64,000 nucleotides of DNA from an uncultured Methanotrichaceae archaeon (GTDB lineage: Archaea > Halobacteriota > Methanosarcinia > Methanotrichales > Methanotrichaceae): assembly GCA_964534145.1 (NCBI GenBank), contig CAZHNU010000005.1:29234-93233 (forward strand). Direction: 5' to 3'. This document shows positions 43,127-52,109 of the stretch, piece after piece. The notes beneath the pieces were generated by a model, which had not been told where the DNA came from, ran no database searches, and worked only from the letters and a program-made list of their open reading frames with translations. Made by a program: the position numbers and the translations under genes. Within the stretch, counting starts at the first letter, position 1; every line of letters starts with the position of its first letter.

Positions 43127-43525
43127 GTGAGCAGCATGAATAAGAAGGCTATCTGCAAGTACTGCGGAGTAGTAAACGAGATAAATATAGAACAGCTATC
43201 AGCGGAAAGCAAAAGCGATTGGCTTTACTGCGATCTGCCTGTAGGCTTTGAATGGAACCTGCCGGCGGGAAAGATAACGCCGGTTGTTGGAGACCCGATA
43301 TACATCTCAGGCTTTGGAGAGCATCTCTCATGGGAGGAATACCTCCTGAAGTACAACATCGATCCTGAGATTGCGTACCTAAGGATGAGGAAGAGGTCTG
43401 AGCAGGCGGGCAAGCCCCAGAGCGCGAGCCGAAATAAGAAGGCCGATCCCCGACTGCCGATCCAGGTTGCTGCGAGGCCTGTCAGGACTCATGACCTCCT
43501 GGACGATGATGATTGGACCTCCTGA
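43127..43525 (+). CDS. Hypothetical protein
   Basis: 132-aa ORF with a GTG start, an N-terminal CKYCG and a basic/acidic tail. I recognise no family. Confidence 0.4.
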   Translation: MSSMNKKAICKYCGVVNEINIEQLSAESKSDWLYCDLPVGFEWNLPAGKITPVVGDPIYISGFGEHLSWEEYLLKYNIDPEIAYLRMRKRSEQAGKPQSASRNKKADPRLPIQVAARPVRTHDLLDDDDWTS

Positions 43526-43853
43526 GCATTGGACCTCCTCAGCGGCGATTTGAGTTTCCCGAGATATTGGCAGTCGGAAATTGACAGTATTAATTAAGTA
43601 GGACCTGATTGAGGGGCTGTTCGATAATAAATGTCATGAAGCCTAATTTTTTTCCCGGATAATTATCATAGAAAATCATTGTTAAATTTGGAAGATCATT
43701 GACAGTTAACCTGATTCTGTCCTCGCCTTATCAGTCTCAATTATTCTCTACTGGCCTATTTGCGGAGATAGATTCAAATATGCCGCAGGGTCAGTCTCAA
43801 TCCCGCATATCTATATCCTCGATGACCGGATTGGATGCCTTGAGGAGTCTGAA

Positions 43854-44402
43854 ATGAAGGAGAAGATTGAAGAAATTGGTTCGCGGCTTCGTGAACTTCG
43901 AGAGCTTTCTAAGGTTAGCGCTGAGGAGATGGCAGGTCACCTGAATGTGCCTGTAGAGACCTACAATTGCTATGAGGACGGCAAGCTGGATATCCCGGCA
44001 AGCGTTCTCGTGGGGATTGCGCGCAGGCTTGACGTCGACATGGGCCTGCTTTTAACAGGCGAAGAGCCCAAGATGAACGTGTTCACTGTAACCAGGAGCG
44101 GAGAGGGGGTGGAGGTGGAGCGCAGGAAGCAGTATAGATACCAGAACCTCGCCGGGAAGTTCGTCCACAAAAAGGCTGAGCCCTTCATCGTTACAGTTGA
44201 GCCGAGAGCTGGAAAGCCCTCTGAGTACAGCCATCCCGGACAGGAGTTCCATTACGTTTTGGAGGGCTCGCTCAAGATCCATATCCACGACAATGAGGTC
44301 GTGCTAAATCAAGGGGATTCCATATTCTTCGATTCGTCTTACGGCCATGCAATGGAGGCCTTAAACGACCAGCCTGCAAAGATGCTGGTCCTCGTCATGT
44401 AG
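43854..44402 (+). CDS. XRE-family HTH plus cupin-domain transcriptional regulator
   Basis: [52 protein letters not shown] (HTH_3) plus a C-terminal cupin [14 protein letters not shown]...[14 protein letters not shown]. The RBS is GAGGAG. Confidence 0.85.
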
Positions 44403-44430
44403 CGTTCGCGAATTCATGGAGGAGCTAGAA

Positions 44431-46335
44431 ATGTCTTCGCTACTTAGCAGATTCGTTTCCAAAACCGATTACAAGTCCTACGAGGACTTCAAAGAAAATT
44501 TCAAGTTCGTCGTGCCTGAGAACTTCAACTTTGCCTTCGATGTCGTTGATGCTTACGCGGCAGAAAGCCCCGAAAAAATTGCCCTGGTGTGGTGCAACGA
44601 CAACAATGAGGACTTAATCCTCACCTTCGGAGATATGAAGCGCCTGAGCGATAAGGCTGCCAACATATTTAGCAGCTACGGCGTGAAAAAGGGCGATACC
44701 GTCATGCTCACCCTAAAGAGCCGCTGGGAGTTCTGGGTTTGCATGGTGGGATTAAACAAGATCGGAGCCATTCCCATCCCATCAACACATATGCTGAAGG
44801 CCAAGGACTTCGTTTACCGCATCAAAAAGGCAGATTTAAAGATGCTGGTATGCATAGGGGAAAACGGCGTTCCAGCAGAGGTGGATACGGCCCACAAGGA
44901 GCTGGGCGGCATTTCCCTAATAAAGGCACTGGCAGGGGCCCCAGGACAAAAGAGGGCGGGTTGGGTCAACTTGAACGAGCTGCTCGACGCTGCATCACCG
45001 GATTTTAAGAGGCCTGCGGGAGAAGAGGCCACGAAGAACTCCGACGTCGTTTTAGCCTACTTCACCTCGGGAACGACAGGCTACCCGAAGATGGTCAAGC
45101 ACGACATGACGTACCCCCTGGGCCATATTCTGACCGCAAAGTACTGGCAGAACGTGGAGGACGACGGCCTCCACTACACAGTGGCCGATACCGGCTGGGC
45201 CAAGTGCGCATGGGGGAAAATCTACGGCCAGTGGATAGCAGGGACGGCTGTGTTCGTTTACGATTATGACAGGTTCGATGCCGGGCGGATGATGGATATG
45301 ATGGCCAAGTACAAGGTCACCACATTCTGCGCGCCTCCGACCATTTTCAGGTTCATGATCAAGAGCGACATGTCCAAGTACGACTTTTCAACCCTCAAGT
45401 ACGCAGTCACCGCAGGCGAGCCGCTGAACCCAACGGTCTACGAGAAGCTACTGGAGACGACGGGCCTTAGGCTGATGGAGGGCTACGGACAAACTGAGAC
45501 TGTGGTCATGATCGCCAACTATCCCTGGATGACGCCCAAGCCAGGCTCAATGGGCAAGCCCGCTCCGGAGTACGATGTCATCCTGGTTGGAAAGGACAAC
45601 AAGGTCTGCGATGTTGGCGAGGAGGGCGAGATCGTCATCCGAACCGATAAGGGCAAGCCCACGGGCCTGTTTACCGACTACCACCTGGACCCCGATAAGA
45701 CCCAAAATACCTGGCACGACGACTACTATCATACAGGAGACACCGCCTGGAAGGATGAGGAGGGATTCTTCTGGTTTGTGGGAAGGACGGACGATATGAT
45801 CAAGAGCTCCGGCTATCGTGTCGGTCCCTTCGAGGTAGAGTCTGCCCTCATGTCCCATCCTGCAGTCGTGGAGTGCGCAATCACGGGCGTTCCCGATGCC
45901 ATCAGGGGACAGGTTGTGAAGGCAACCGTCGTCCTCACGAAGGGCTATTCGCCATCAGAAGAGCTGAAAAAGGAGCTTCAGGAGCACGTAAAGAAGGTGA
46001 CGGCACCTTACAAGTATCCCCGCATCATCGAGTTCGTGGACGAGCTTCCAAAGACCATAAGCGGTAAGATCAGGCGGGTTGAAATCAGGGAGAAGGATAA
46101 GCCCTATCCGATCATCAACGCCAAGGAGTGCAAGGCATGCGAGAGGTGCGTCACCGACTGTCCGGCCAACGTTCTGAAGATGAGCGATGAGCTGAACGAA
46201 CGCGGCTACAAGTTTGCGGTCTACACCGGAGACGGCTGCATCGGCTGCGGCGCATGCTTCTATACCTGCCCCGAGCCGCTGGCAATTGAGGTCCATATCC
46301 CGCAAAAGGAGAAGGTCGAGGAGAAGGCCAGCTGA
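44431..46335 (+). CDS. AMP-forming (medium-chain-type) acyl-CoA synthetase fused to a C-terminal 2x[4Fe-4S] ferredoxin domain
   Basis: [46 protein letters not shown] and [10 protein letters not shown]. From nt ~46102 the sequence is [12 protein letters not shown]...[12 protein letters not shown]. The ATG at 44431 is preceded by GGAGGAG; the ORF-track start is 44416. Confidence 0.9.
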
Positions 46336-46405
46336 GTGGACAGGCAAGGATTGGCAGGTTTCTTTGGCAAATTCAGGTTTAGGAAGAATGCTGGCAAAGG
46401 AGAAT

Positions 46406-46464
46406 GCAAGTTAATGCTAAAGCAAGTTAAGGCTAAAGCAAGTTTAGGGTGAAGGCGAGTTCAA
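46406..46464 (+). repeat. 16-17-bp tandem repeat (about 3.5 copies) abutting the OFOR alpha start codon
   Basis: gcaagttaatgctaaa / gcaagttaaggctaaa / gcaagtttagggtgaag / gcgagttcaa-ATG. Confidence 0.75.
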
Positions 46465-47508
46465 ATGGCTTCTCAGTTAGTTGCAGGAAACAGCGCAGTA
46501 ATAGTCGGTGCATTATACGCGGGCTGTGATTGCTTCTTTGGCTATCCAATCACGCCTGCAAGCGAAATACTGCACGAGGCATCGGCTTTTTTCCCTAAGG
46601 TGAACCGGAAGTTCGTGCAGGCTGAATCGGAGGAGGCTGCAATCAACATGGTTTACGGCGCGGCGGGCGCCGGCCACAGGGTGCTGGCAGCATCATCAGG
46701 GCCCGGAATGAGCCTGAAGCAGGAGGGCATAAGCTACATCGCCGGGGCCGAGCTTCCCTGCGTCGTCGTGGATATATGCCGTGCGGGCCCGGGACTAGGG
46801 AACATCGGCCCGGAGCAGTCCGATTATAACCAGGCATGCAAGGGTGGCGGCCACGGCTGCTTCAATAACATAGTGCTCGCACCCGCAAGCGTCCAGGAGA
46901 TGTGCGACTTCACCTACCAGGCGTTTGACCTGGCATTCAAGTACAGAAACCCTGTTGTGATTCTTGCAGACGGTGTGCTTGGCCATATGGTCGAGCCCCT
47001 GAAGTTCCCCGAAAAGGCTATTGAGCCAAAGATCGACGCATCGTGGGCTGTTGGCGGCAGCGCAGCCACCAGAAAGAACCTCATTACGTCAATAGCCCTG
47101 GACTTCGATGAGCTTGAGCTGCACAACCTCAGGCTGCAGAGGAAGTACGAGGAGATAAAGAAGAACGAGGTGGCCTATGAGGGCTATCGGCTGGAGGATG
47201 CAGAGGTCGTTTTGGTCTCTTATGGAATCAGCAGCAGGATAGCCCGATCTGCAGTGGACAATGCCAGGAAGGAGGGAATCAAGGCGGGACTATTCCGCCC
47301 GATCACGCTCTTCCCGTTCCCTGAGAAGGAGATAGCAGCGCTTGCGAGGAAGGGCTGTAAGTTCATCTCTGTCGAGATGAGCAACGGCATGATGAGGGAG
47401 GATATCAGGATGGCTGCAGGCTGTGTCCCCGTGGAGCTTGTGAACCGCTATGGAGGGCGGCTGATCCAGATGGACCGGCTCATGGACAAGATCAGGGAGG
47501 TAACATAA
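46465..47508 (+). CDS. 2-oxoacid:ferredoxin oxidoreductase, alpha subunit
   Basis: [29 protein letters not shown]..., [12 protein letters not shown] and [13 protein letters not shown]. Confidence 0.9.
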
Positions 47509-47509
47509 A

Positions 47510-48955
47510 ATGGCGGCAACTGAGAAGATCATAGGCGGACATAAGGGAATTTACGACGAGTTCTCGAGAAAGGGCGGATCGGCAATTACGGCTACCCATT
47601 ATTGCCCCGGCTGCGGCCACGGGATACTTCATAAGCTGATTGGCGAGGCGATGGCAGACCTTGGCATTCAGGATCGCTGCGTGGTCTTGAGCCCCGTGGG
47701 CTGCTCTGTCTTCGCTTACTACTATCTGGACTGCGGCCATATGCAGTGTGCCCACGGCAGGGCTCCGGCGATTGCGACTGGAATCTCCCGAGCTGAAGAC
47801 AACGCCATCGTCATGGCCTACCAGGGAGACGGCGATCTGGCATCCATTGGCTTAAACGAGACCGTCCAGGCAGCCAACCGCGGCGAGAAGCTGGCAGTCT
47901 TCTTCATCAACAACACGGTCTACGGAATGACCGGCGGCCAGATGGCCCCGACGACGCTCATCGGCGAGGTGACGGCCACGACGCCGACAGGCCGCGACCC
48001 GAGGGACATGGGCTATCCAATTCATATCTGTGAGCTGCTGGACACCCTGAGGGCACCGGTCTACATCGAGCGCGTCTCGCTGTCCGACATCGAGCATGTG
48101 CGGAAAGCCCGACGGGCTGTTCGAAAGGCCCTGGAGATCCAGAGGGACAAGAAAGGCTATGCCTTTGTGGAGTTCCTCTCGCCCTGCCCCACAATTCTCC
48201 GGATGGACGTCAAAGGCGTGCAGAGGTTCATCAACGAGCAGATGGAAAAGGAGTTTCCCTTAAAGAAATTCAGGGACAGGTCTGCGGAGGTAGAGCCAGT
48301 CGTCAGGGCAGAGAGCGACTTCTCCAGGCAGTCGCTGGATCAGGCCTTCGGCTGCGGCTCGATGGAGTGCATCGAGATGCTTGAAGATCCTGAGTTCCGG
48401 CTCAAAGGCGTGAAGATCGCGGGATTCGGCGGCCAGGGTGTCCTGAGCATGGGGATGGCGCTGGCCCAGGCGGCCTTCGGCTCAGGAAAGTTCGTCTCCT
48501 GGTATCCGGACTACGGGCCGGAGCAGCGCGGCGGGACATCGAACTGCTCGGTGATAATTTCGGGGCTGCCCATAGGCTCGCCGGTTATAGATCATCCCGA
48601 TGTGCTGGTGGCCTTCAACAGGCCGTCGCTTGAGAAGTTTGCTCCCACGGTCAAGAAGGGCGGTATCATCCTATACGACAGCCTTGCCGGCCAGTTCGAC
48701 GCCCCTGAGGGCGTCAGGGCGATCTCAGTTCCTGCGACCCAGATTGCGGCAGAGAGGGGCGTGCAGCAGGCAGCGAACACGGCGATGTTCGGGGCACTCA
48801 AGCAGGCCGGAGGCCTGGGGCTTCCCAAGGAGGCATACGGAAACGCCTTCAAGGTCACCTTCGCCAAGAAGCCGAAGCTCATCCCCAAGAACCTGGAAAT
48901 CATGGAGGCTGGAGCAGAGGCGGTGAAGGTGCTGGAGATGGTGGCGGGAAGGTGA
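47510..48955 (+). CDS. 2-oxoacid:ferredoxin oxidoreductase, beta (TPP) subunit fused to a gamma domain
   Basis: Beta part: [23 protein letters not shown] and [11 protein letters not shown]. Gamma part (from about aa 295): [21 protein letters not shown]...[17 protein letters not shown]. The RBS GGAGGT lies inside the alpha 3' end. Confidence 0.9.
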
Positions 48956-49300
48956 GGCAGAAGTGTCCGCTCAGAGATGAGCGGACTACTTATTTTTAGA
49001 TGAATATTTCGCAGCTCGCTGCGGGGCATGTCTGCGCGGTTTAATATCATCCTTCACGCGCGGTGCCAATTGCAATTTTATAGGATAATTCATCAATCTG
49101 AAGGTCATGAACGTTCGTACAACTTGGCCCTGCCTGCTTGGCCAACGATCTCCTCCGGCGGGATAGTTCCATTGATCAGGTTAACCTGGGATTTCATCAG
49201 AGTTGTACAGCCGCTAGTAAATCCTATAAGCTCATAACGAGAAAAATTAAAACACCTGAATTCCGATACAATTGAAGCTCCTGGAAGGTCAGGCGTTCGT

Positions 49301-49739: not shown

Positions 49740-52109
49740 TCACTGTCGAGCCATAGCAATGCGCAAACGCTCCTCCGGACTGATCAGGTGGTCGTGACTG
49801 TCTTTGCCCAGATCGATCTGCACCCAATTGATCTTGCCATTGAACCTGCTGTCCCGAGTTGTATAGTCAGGGCTGACAGGCGTGCCTGATTCGTAGCCGA
49901 TATCGGTCGTCTCATCTGCGGAGAAGACCATCGCCTGCGTCGCAGCGACCCGGCCCTTGCCCACTTCTTTGCCGTCGTAGTAGAGCGTTACTTTTCCGCC
50001 CTTGCCTAAGCCCCCACCGTCATAGACGAACTCCATTCGCACCTGGTGCTTGCCCGCTGGGATAGGCTCAGTCGCCACGACTGGAAATTCCTGGATGCCA
50101 AGAACGTTGTAGACGAACTTGGCCTTGCCATCCTTGGCATAAAGGCTCCAGCCGCCAAAACGTCCGCCCTGGGCGATAATTACACCTTCGGCGCTTTTAG
50201 ACCGTATTTCCAGCTCGGCCGTGACAGAGAATGACTTGTTCTTTATGCTGATGACGCTGTTCTCCGAGAGACGCCCCATCCCGGGGAAGAACAGCTGCGA
50301 GTTGCCCCTTACAAGCGTTGGCCGTCCGGCTAGATCGGGGTTGAGCCGCTCTCCGGTGCGATCGTCCATCGGAAGCACGTTATACTTGGTCGCCTCTATG
50401 AGCCACAGGCGCTGCAGCTTTTGCAGCATGTCCGGCATCTCCTTTGAAAGATCGTTAGCCTGCGTCCAGTCCTTGCTGCCGTCGTAAAGCTCCCACAAGT
50501 CATTGTCGAAGGGAGGGGCCATCTCTATCAATAGCCAAGGCGTGCGGTGCTTGGTAACCGCACTCCAGCCCTTGCAGTAGATGCCGCGGTTCCCGAACAT
50601 CTCGAAGTACTGCAGGTCGTGTCGTTCAGGGGCCTCGGCCTCGTTGAAGCTGTACAGCATGCTTATGCCTTCCATTGGGGATTGCATGACGCCGTTCACG
50701 AGGGTCGGCTCGGGCAGCCCAGCCGCTTCCAGGACGGTAGGAGCGATATCAATGACGTGGCAGAACTGGTTGCGGATAGCACCTTTATCCTTAATGCCTT
50801 TGGGCCAGTGGACGATCATGCCGTTGCGGGTGCCGCCCCAGTGCGAGGCTATTTGCTTTGTCCACTGGTAGGGTGCGTCCATGGCCCAGGCCCAACCGAC
50901 GGAATAGTGGTTGTACGATTCCGGCGAGCCGAACTCATCCATCTTGGACAGCATGAACTCGGGGGTCTCAAGAGCGGCCATACCGTTGAAATTAGCCATC
51001 TCGTTGAAAGCTCCATTCATAGTACCCTCTGCAGAGGCACCGTTGTCGCCGATGATATAGTATATAAGCGTGTCATCCAGGATTTCCAGCTCTTCCAGCG
51101 TTTCGATCAGCCGGCCGACATAGTAGTCGGTATGCTCCAGAAATCCGGCATAGACCTCCATCTGGCGTTCCAGCACCGGTTTGAGCTGCGCTGGCATATC
51201 GTCCCACGCCGCAATCTCGGAATGACGCGCTGTAAGCTCGGCGTCTGGCGGTATGACGCCCAGCTCCTTTTGCCTGGCAAGGGTGATCTCACGCTGTTTA
51301 TCCCAGCCGTGTGCAAACTTCCCCTTATATTTGTCAGCCCATTCCCTGGGTACGTGATGCGGCGCATGGGTCGCACCAGGTGCGAAGTAGACGAAGAACG
51401 GCTTATCGGGCATAAGGGCTTTCTGTTGGCGAATCCAGTTGATTGCATGGTCTGCCAGGTCAACGGTCAAGTGATAGCCCTCCTCCGGCGTTTTGGGCGG
51501 CTCGACCGGGGTCAAGCCTTCGTAGAGCGCCGGGTCCCACTGGTTGTTCTCGCCGCCAATGAAGCCATAAAAGTATTCGAAGCCGCCGCCTCCAGACGGC
51601 CAGGCATCAAACGGCCCCATGGGCGAGGACTGCCAGACAGGGACCTCATGGCATTTGCCGAACTGAGCCGTCGAGTAGCCATTGAGCTTAAGAGTAAGTG
51701 CCAGCGGAGCCTTGGTGTTGGGCCGCAGCGAATTATTGCCTGGGGCGGAAGTGGCAGTTTCGGTGATGCTTCCCATACCGACTGAATGATGATTTCGGCC
51801 GGTCAATAATGCCGCCCTTGTGGGCGCGCATAGGGCTGTGGTGTGGAAACGGGTATACTTCAGGCCGCCTGCTGCCAGCTTTTCGGCAGCTGGTGTCTGG
51901 CACGGTCCGCCAAACGCACTGGAAGCACCAAAACCCACATCGTCGAGCAGGATGATCAGCACGTTTGGTGCACCAGTGGGCGGCAGCAGCGGCTCGATTG
52001 GTGGGTATTTGGTATCAGGGTCCTTGGCGTCATATGTTGTCAGACCGATTTGAGGTCGATCGGGGATGGGCAGGACAGAACGAAGATGTTTATCCGGTTG
52101 GTTTGACAT
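49740..52109 (-). CDS. Arylsulfatase (Cys-type, large AtsA-like form)
   Basis: NVLIILLDDVGFG, the formylglycine motif TALCAPTRAALLTGRNHH, GKCHE and GDNGAS. I see no obvious signal peptide. Confidence 0.9.
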   Translation of the reverse strand: MSNQPDKHLRSVLPIPDRPQIGLTTYDAKDPDTKYPPIEPLLPPTGAPNVLIILLDDVGFGASSAFGGPCQTPAAEKLAAGGLKYTRFHTTALCAPTRAALLTGRNHHSVGMGSITETATSAPGNNSLRPNTKAPLALTLKLNGYSTAQFGKCHEVPVWQSSPMGPFDAWPSGGGGFEYFYGFIGGENNQWDPALYEGLTPVEPPKTPEEGYHLTVDLADHAINWIRQQKALMPDKPFFVYFAPGATHAPHHVPREWADKYKGKFAHGWDKQREITLARQKELGVIPPDAELTARHSEIAAWDDMPAQLKPVLERQMEVYAGFLEHTDYYVGRLIETLEELEILDDTLIYYIIGDNGASAEGTMNGAFNEMANFNGMAALETPEFMLSKMDEFGSPESYNHYSVGWAWAMDAPYQWTKQIASHWGGTRNGMIVHWPKGIKDKGAIRNQFCHVIDIAPTVLEAAGLPEPTLVNGVMQSPMEGISMLYSFNEAEAPERHDLQYFEMFGNRGIYCKGWSAVTKHRTPWLLIEMAPPFDNDLWELYDGSKDWTQANDLSKEMPDMLQKLQRLWLIEATKYNVLPMDDRTGERLNPDLAGRPTLVRGNSQLFFPGMGRLSENSVISIKNKSFSVTAELEIRSKSAEGVIIAQGGRFGGWSLYAKDGKAKFVYNVLGIQEFPVVATEPIPAGKHQVRMEFVYDGGGLGKGGKVTLYYDGKEVGKGRVAATQAMVFSADETTDIGYESGTPVSPDYTTRDSRFNGKINWVQIDLGKDSHDHLISPEERLRIAMARQ

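Follow-up and report, generated by a model that had tools for sequence, protein, structure and literature searches.

The 2-oxoisovalerate:ferredoxin oxidoreductase (VOR) of methanogens is one of the 2-oxoacid:ferredoxin oxidoreductases (OFORs). The Methanothermobacter enzyme (VorABC, MTH703-705) was reportedly purified by Tersteegen et al. in 1997 with three subunits: VorA (beta-gamma), VorB (alpha), and VorC (delta). This VOR is treated as a 2-oxoisovalerate synthase, and VOR is considered anabolic in methanogens (PMC3087415). In Methanococcus maripaludis, MMP1271-1272 are called Vor (PMC3475374), and MMP1274 is annotated as 'AMP-dependent synthetase and ligase' (PMC6214177). In Methanothermobacter as in M. 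maripaludis (MMP1271-1273), the genes are ordered delta, alpha, beta-gamma, downstream of those for a synthetase and an XRE-cupin regulator, and the delta subunit is a free protein of 79-94 residues. The locus presented here, from an uncultured Methanotrichaceae archaeon, has the same alpha type, beta-gamma fusion and delta family, the same gene order, and the same upstream synthetase and regulator, whereas its delta is the C-terminal domain of the synthetase. The four genes lie at positions 43,854-48,955 of a stretch of 64,000 nucleotides (GenBank assembly GCA_964534145.1, contig CAZHNU010000005.1, positions 29,234 to 93,233 of the forward strand), hereafter termed the window, to which all positions below refer.

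A delta module that is covalently fused is known from the single-chain pyruvate:ferredoxin oxidoreductases of the Desulfovibrio africanus and Moorella thermoacetica type, where it forms domain V. In these enzymes the module is fused to other OFOR domains, whereas in the window it is fused to the enzyme of the presumed preceding step. Like the ferredoxin tail of the window protein, OorD of Helicobacter pylori (OorDABC, 8YS5) and PorD/KorD are small and have two [4Fe-4S] clusters, the medial and the distal one, which they carry as integral subunits. Their enzymes act on 2-oxoglutarate or pyruvate, they are in no case fused to a synthetase, and the tail scores under the cutoffs of their models. 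The medial and distal clusters are carried by OorD in the cryo-EM structure of OorDABC (8YS5; PMC12307629). For its purification an N-terminally His-tagged oorDABC construct was used, in which the tag is read as being on OorD, the product of the first gene (PMC12307629), which suggests by analogy that the N-terminus of the delta subunit is accessible and tolerates extensions.

The closest described synthetase is MacsMa, the medium-chain acyl-CoA synthetase of Methanosarcina acetivorans (3ETC), the characterized representative of the orthologous group. 2-Methylbutyrate is its preferred acid, and the only one with which both steps of the reaction are completed (PMC10455477). The motifs of the superfamily, including the lysine of the A10 core motif, are shared with the window protein. 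The MacsMa chain stops about two residues past ...EIRDKDQ, without an Fe-S domain, whereas the window protein continues into the ferredoxin tail.

The fusion gene (44416-46335, + strand) encodes a protein of 639 residues, which comprises an AMP-binding domain (PF00501, 1.2e-60, residues 46-411), an AMP-binding_C domain (PF13193, 1.3e-25, residues 473-551), and a Fer4 dicluster region (Pfam Fer4_7/10/9, residues 565-620). An earlier note on this DNA, made from the letters alone, had described an AMP-forming acyl-CoA synthetase of which the last ~77 residues, from nucleotide (nt) ~46102, form a two-cluster ferredoxin. The reading frame is continuous through this point and both cluster motifs are present. 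The Pfam and NCBIfam scans likewise returned the domains that the note had claimed for the locus as a whole.

The synthetase portion (residues 1-562; 44416-46101, + strand) matches 3ETC (3etc_A) over residues 4-562 with 930 bits (E = 6e-279), the next structure reaching 415 bits. This match identifies residues 1-562 as a close homologue of MacsMa. The A10 core motif (PKTxSGKIxR), which contains the catalytic lysine, spans residues 544-554 and is invariant across 53 aligned homologues. Unfused orthologues of about 558 residues, 68-77% identical, are present in other archaea. The best NCBIfam model is MbcS with 468 bits against a cutoff of 850, so that the protein is not an MbcS equivalog. By analogy with MacsMa, the window synthetase is predicted to prefer 2-methylbutyrate or other small branched acids. 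The substrate range is speculative, for instance as regards the aryl acids that the earlier note had included.

The tail (residues 563-639; 46102-46335 including the stop codon, + strand) contains two CxxCxxCxxxCP motifs. These are the sole CxxCxxCxxxC motifs found in the open reading frames (ORFs) of at least 40 residues in the 64-kb window, so that there is no separate delta gene nearby, as had been proposed. The proposal that the tail is the delta-type module of the adjoining OFOR is borne out by unfused relatives, which place a free ferredoxin of 76-94 residues between the synthetase and the alpha subunit. The order regulator, synthetase, free ferredoxin, alpha, and beta-gamma is the same in four unfused lineages: M. 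maripaludis (MMP1275-1271), an Altiarchaeia metagenome-assembled genome (MAG), a Methanothermobacter MAG, in which the contig stops after alpha, and Methanobrevibacter filiformis. The tail aligns with the free ferredoxins of these clusters over its full length with 60-63% identity, and with free-standing VOR delta subunits with 60-76% identity. The junction falls exactly at the N-terminus of the free ferredoxin (...EIREKDK/PYPIIN in the window, M-ECSTKK-PYPVIN in M. maripaludis).

A search with the tail only returned 140 proteins, nearly all of 73-128 residues and 53-76% identical, from Methanococcus voltae, Methanobacterium, Methanothermobacter, Methanobrevibacter, Methanolobus, Methanomicrobiales, and a few bacteria. 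The source annotation of the free orthologues is VOR delta subunit, and the best match of the tail among small OFOR subunits in the Protein Data Bank (PDB) is 8ys5_D. By sequence and gene position, the last ~75 residues are an orthologue of VorC, the free two-[4Fe-4S] delta subunit of the three-subunit VOR. Several motifs outside the cluster ligands (PYP, EC-K..R, N.RGY, and TCPEP.A.E.HIP) show little or no variation when the tail is compared with 46 free deltas. This pattern speaks for retention, in the tail, of the surface that the free subunit uses, and fits a docking surface that has been kept.

The alpha subunit (347 residues; 46465-47508, + strand; Pfam POR_N and PFOR_II) scores 545 bits against a cutoff of 399 with the NCBIfam VorB model (NF005507, PRK07119), and is 68-73% identical to the alpha subunits of unfused clusters. 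The assignment to the OFORs made in the earlier note is thereby confirmed. Its generic four-subunit label did not stand, as the enzyme is of the three-subunit VorABC type of methanogens. The beta-gamma subunit (VorA type, 481 residues; 47510-48955, + strand) comprises TPP_enzyme_C (residues 71-221) and POR gamma (residues 307-470) domains, and reaches the cutoff of no NCBIfam beta or gamma model. It contains a CPGC motif (C32, C35) and C65, spaced like Cys19/22/53 of OorB (PMC12307629), and a GDG...NN motif for thiamine diphosphate (ThDP). The same architecture is found, with 473-480 residues, in the unfused clusters of M. maripaludis, Altiarchaeia, and Methanobrevibacter, and also in Sedimentisphaera. 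Alpha and beta-gamma are 57-73% identical to those paired with a free delta. The nearest solved OFORs are 1YD7, H. pylori OorDABC (8YS5), and the two-subunit enzymes 6N2N and 5B46. Activity on branched 2-oxoacids and acyl-CoAs is predicted from the annotation and from the literature on orthologues (PMC3087415, PMC3475374).

In the bacterium Sedimentisphaera cyanobacteriorum (CP019633.1, L072), the same trio of delta, alpha, and beta-gamma has neither synthetase nor regulator upstream. The delta of this trio is 75% identical to the window tail, which hints at a transfer of the VOR module between domains.

Among 5.8 billion proteins searched, dozens of homologues of 616-639 residues combine AMP-binding and Fer4 domains, at 62-89% identity, the named ones being from Methanothrix/Methanosaeta, including M. 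harundinacea. A genome scan, with one genome per species, found the fusion gene in about 55 Methanotrichaceae or Methanosarcinales MAGs and in two closed Methanothrix chromosomes (OY762912.1, OY821645.1). The survey of architecture and neighbourhood that the earlier note had called for yielded the same four-gene cluster in more than 50 Methanotrichaceae genomes; by tblastn, the cluster is complete in every locus long enough to hold it. The closest relative is L052 (90%). The length of the junction, IR[E/D]KD[K/R]PYP, is constant in 62 representatives of clusters of fused proteins, and both Cys motifs, with all eight Cys, are intact in 60 of these 62. Their mean identity to the window protein is 75% in the tail and 77.5% in the synthetase part, so that conservation is about equal in the two. 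The fusion is maintained across the family under purifying selection. An internal start that would yield a free delta was sought at the junction, where no in-frame ATG, GTG, or TTG was found.

All carriers of the fusion with names are Methanotrichaceae. Divergent fused forms with 62-67% identity come from metagenome contigs without assigned taxon; the one of these for which the context was fetched (P0083, locus L069) is followed by alpha and beta-gamma. The in-frame fusion is limited to the Methanothrix lineage, together with some metagenomic relatives of no assigned taxon. A gene with 81-86% identity to the fusion gene of Methanothrix also occurs on two short contigs (L023, 2.5 kb, and L038, 1.5 kb) from MAGs assigned to Dehalococcoidia and Sedimentisphaerales, in which these contigs are probably binning contamination. 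When the whole library was searched by HMMER with the last 175 residues, no match among the best 150 representatives extended through the ferredoxin part. This speaks only weakly against the fusion elsewhere, the Methanothrix proteins having evidently been collapsed under unfused representatives at 50% identity. The longer HMMER matches proved to be other fusions, with glyoxalase, GNAT, and cupin domains. Natural fusions of the same synthetase family (P0163, P0166, P0200, P0186, P0188) combine the synthetase with a glyoxalase/dioxygenase, with a GNAT acetyltransferase, or with a C-terminal cupin, or the XRE-cupin regulator with the synthetase in one ORF.

Compared with the M. maripaludis DNA, the fusion amounts to about 110 nt fewer, which comprise the last few codons of the synthetase, the stop codon, a spacer of ~70 nt, and the first ~6 codons of the delta. 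From this comparison with an unfused locus, the best reading is that one deletion of ~110 nt joined macs to vorC. In a neighbour-joining tree of the synthetase parts, without support values, the fused forms are not monophyletic with respect to forms that have the regulator and synthetase only. Despite this tree, the constant junction favours a single origin of the fusion with later losses. In four Methanosarcinales loci (L061, L066, L067, and L068), the XRE-cupin regulator stands beside an unfused synthetase (73-77% identical), with no adjoining OFOR genes. Their synthetases nest among the fused forms in the same tree, which suggests a secondary loss of delta, alpha, and beta-gamma.

The explanation of the whole that is considered probable is a methanogen operon for the scavenging of branched short-chain fatty acids, in which the tail acts as the delta subunit and tethers the synthetase to VOR. 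The operon would consist of the XRE-cupin regulator, macs, vorC, vorB, and vorA, with macs and vorC merged into one gene in the Methanothrix lineage. The synthetase would convert the acid, ATP, and CoA into acyl-CoA, AMP, and pyrophosphate (PPi). VOR would then convert the acyl-CoA, CO2, and two reduced ferredoxins into the 2-oxoacid and CoA, and transamination of the 2-oxoacid would yield Ile, Val, or Leu. The acid would be 2-methylbutyrate, with isobutyrate, isovalerate, or propionate as probable further substrates. The signal for the cupin regulator is probably the acid or a product.

In the assembly, the tail would keep the position of the delta subunit on the alpha/beta-gamma core, and the synthetase would therefore be held 1:1 on VOR. 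Electrons would pass from reduced ferredoxin to the two clusters of the tail, then to the proximal cluster, and finally to ThDP. In Methanothrix, reduced ferredoxin is produced by the cleavage of acetyl-CoA. Tethering would ensure equal stoichiometry and proximity, and would favour the hand-over of acyl-CoA and the recycling of CoA. From the fusion, it is plausible that the synthetase is physically 'wired' into one assembly, perhaps with channelling. Reductive carboxylation, which the earlier note had proposed, agrees with the preference of Macs (PMC10455477) and with the anabolic role of VOR (PMC3087415). It also agrees with the use of branched volatile acids, which are required by or stimulate many methanogens, for the synthesis of Ile and Leu (PMC10658910), and with the proposed route to Ile in M. 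ruminantium by reductive carboxylation of 2-methylbutyrate (PMC2812497).

Several points weigh against this explanation. The tail remains under the cutoffs of the NCBIfam delta models that are among its best hits, with 50 bits against 93 for OorD (first), 36 against 60 for PorD_KorD (second), and 32 against 125 for OGOR_delta. As the genuine free orthologues of M. maripaludis and Altiarchaeia are also under the OorD and PorD_KorD cutoffs, these models miss this VorC-type subfamily. The AlphaFold2 model of the tail alone, computed with the 46 free deltas, has a predicted local distance difference test (pLDDT) score of 48, a low value being expected for an Fe-S protein in the apo form. The C-terminal domain of ANL superfamily enzymes rotates by about 140 degrees between the half-reactions, and the ferredoxin joins this domain directly: the A10 lysine is 16 residues from the PYP that opens the ferredoxin and 22 residues from the first cluster Cys, with no linker. 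A tail docked rigidly on VOR could therefore hamper catalysis, unless the large N-domain moves. Some Methanosarcinales relatives keep the regulator and the synthetase with no VOR next door, so that the synthetase can work untethered. In the window itself, a spacer of 129 nt may loosen the coupling of the fusion gene with the alpha gene.

The alternative that survives best, although it is unlikely, is a near-neutral fusion, in which a small deletion joined adjacent genes whose products had no prior contact. The tail would still act as delta, with the synthetase as a passenger, the acyl-CoA would diffuse freely, and there would be neither channelling nor kinetic benefit. The single deletion of ~110 nt suffices for such an event, separate genes serve most methanogens, and some relatives have the synthetase without adjoining VOR. 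The variable N-terminal leaders of the free deltas also suggest an exposed N-terminus on which a passenger is tolerated. However, the constant junction persists down to 62% identity, and no fission is seen wherever the VOR genes adjoin. Moreover, distant archaea share the order of synthetase and delta, in itself a sign of a functional link. This account and the tethered operon have the same parts, and disagree only on what the fusion brings.

It is very improbable that the tail is no VOR subunit at all. It would then be a redox-sensing or regulatory Fe-S domain that gates the ATP-consuming activation to times when ferredoxin is reduced, or a tethered mobile ferredoxin, and VOR would use the single cluster of beta. 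OFORs of two subunits without delta do exist, among the solved relatives (6N2N, 5B46), and the ferredoxin is joined without linker to a mobile C-terminal domain, close to the catalytic Lys. The AlphaFold2 model of the whole protein (pLDDT 80.7), which says nothing on the docking site of the tail, is confident for the synthetase and has no long disordered linker; the tail scores 60-83, against 48 alone, which could mean packing on the synthetase. Against this possibility, both position and sequence make the tail the orthologue of the free delta, with the non-ligand motifs retained. The alpha and beta-gamma subunits, as seen above, are close to partners of free deltas, and a delta is present in every examined cluster with this type of alpha and beta-gamma.

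A catabolic direction is more doubtful still. VOR would oxidize branched 2-oxoacids derived from amino acids, and the synthetase would run in reverse, from acyl-CoA, AMP, and PPi to acid, ATP, and CoA. OFORs are reversible, VOR is catabolic in Thermococcales, and the reversal of an AMP-forming acetyl-CoA synthetase is reported from Syntrophus aciditrophicus. However, Methanothrix and the other hosts are methanogens not known as amino acid fermenters, branched acids are required or used by methanogens for Ile and Leu, and the Methanothermobacter enzyme is treated as a 2-oxoisovalerate synthase. Catabolic archaeal systems, in addition, use ADP-forming synthetases. Lastly, a sequencing or assembly artefact, by a lost stop codon or a frameshift before nt ~46102, which the earlier note had named as a possible refutation, is itself refuted by the same fusion with its constant junction in 62 protein cluster representatives and in more than 50 species genomes from independent assemblies, closed chromosomes included.

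With the tethered operon as the preferred explanation, a broader proposal can be made only tentatively. The fusion may serve as a 'Rosetta stone', whereby Macs-type synthetases would be peripheral subunits of methanogen VOR even in genomes that encode them separately. Synthetase and VOR would then make up a 'carboxylate carboxylase' metabolon, driven by ATP and dependent on ferredoxin, that channels acyl-CoA and recycles CoA. The linker-less Fe-S domain might then couple the conformational cycle of the synthetase to the delivery of electrons. No synthetase-VOR contacts were found in a Thermococcus interactome paper.

The earlier note knew of no described synthetase-delta fusion, and full-text literature searches on the synthetase, the pathway, and Methanothrix found no description of it either. 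What appears undescribed is the covalent in-frame link only, the pathway, both enzymes, and the widespread unfused operon being already known. To our knowledge, this would be the first covalent fusion of an acyl-CoA synthetase with a subunit of a 2-oxoacid:ferredoxin oxidoreductase. The fusion makes the physical coupling of synthetase and VOR directly testable, as a natural construct for probing whether activation and reductive carboxylation are coupled, and provides a template for engineered modules that convert an acid and CO2 into a 2-oxoacid. Methanothrix is among the most abundant methane producers of wetlands, rice soils, and anaerobic digesters, habitats in which protein breakdown supplies branched volatile fatty acids. 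A conserved module dedicated to the conversion of these acids into precursors of Ile, Val, and Leu bears on the carbon economy of Methanothrix and on cross-feeding.

The fused proteins are labelled 'acetyl-CoA synthetase' (by JGI, in NCBI MAGs, and in UniRef for M. harundinacea) or 'AMP-binding protein'. The former label is likely a misannotation of a Macs-type fusion, and can inflate the counts or expression estimates of acetate-activating enzymes in studies of Methanothrix.

The first gene of the cluster (43854-44402, + strand) encodes the transcriptional regulator, a protein of 182 residues with an XRE-type helix-turn-helix (HTH_31/HTH_3) and a cupin domain (Pfam Cupin_2, 3.5e-18). It lies directly 5' of the synthetase gene in every relative examined, whether fused, unfused, or without adjoining VOR genes. 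The four co-directional ORFs listed in the earlier note were all recovered at their positions, in the order regulator, synthetase, alpha, and beta-gamma. Their description as tightly spaced is valid for the regulator and synthetase genes (13 nt) and for the alpha and beta-gamma genes (1 nt), but not for the synthetase and alpha genes, which are 129 nt apart (46336-46464, + strand). This last gap measures 4-12 nt in all relatives (more than 50). The spacer of the window contains a 16-nt tandem duplication (GCTAAAGCAAGTTA, 46416-46445) and a TTTCTTT run. As a check for a repeat or mobile element, further copies were sought in the window and among the fetched loci, with none found. Translational or transcriptional coupling may be loosened in this strain.

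Upstream of the regulator gene, an alignment of 10 Methanotrichaceae loci has a sole near-invariant block, GAGATAGATTCAAATATG followed by GGCAGTC (43765-43796, + strand), in flanks that are otherwise unalignable. The block lies ~60-90 nt 5' of the start codon of the regulator and is probably the promoter of the cluster (TATA-like), an operator, or both. At the other end, a hairpin with a 9-bp stem, including 6 G-C pairs, is followed by the T-rich TACTTATTTT (48965-48996, + strand) and begins 10 nt past the stop codon of beta-gamma. By its likeness to the terminator consensus, it may mark the end of the cluster. The adjoining ORF on the 3' side (49740-52109, - strand, 789 residues) has the sulfatase signature CAPTRAALLTGR; it likely encodes an arylsulfatase without relation to the cluster. 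On the 5' side, another 16-nt tandem direct repeat (TGATGATTGGACCTCC / TGAGCATTGGACCTCC, 43507-43538) is located at the end of the upstream ORF 43127-43525.

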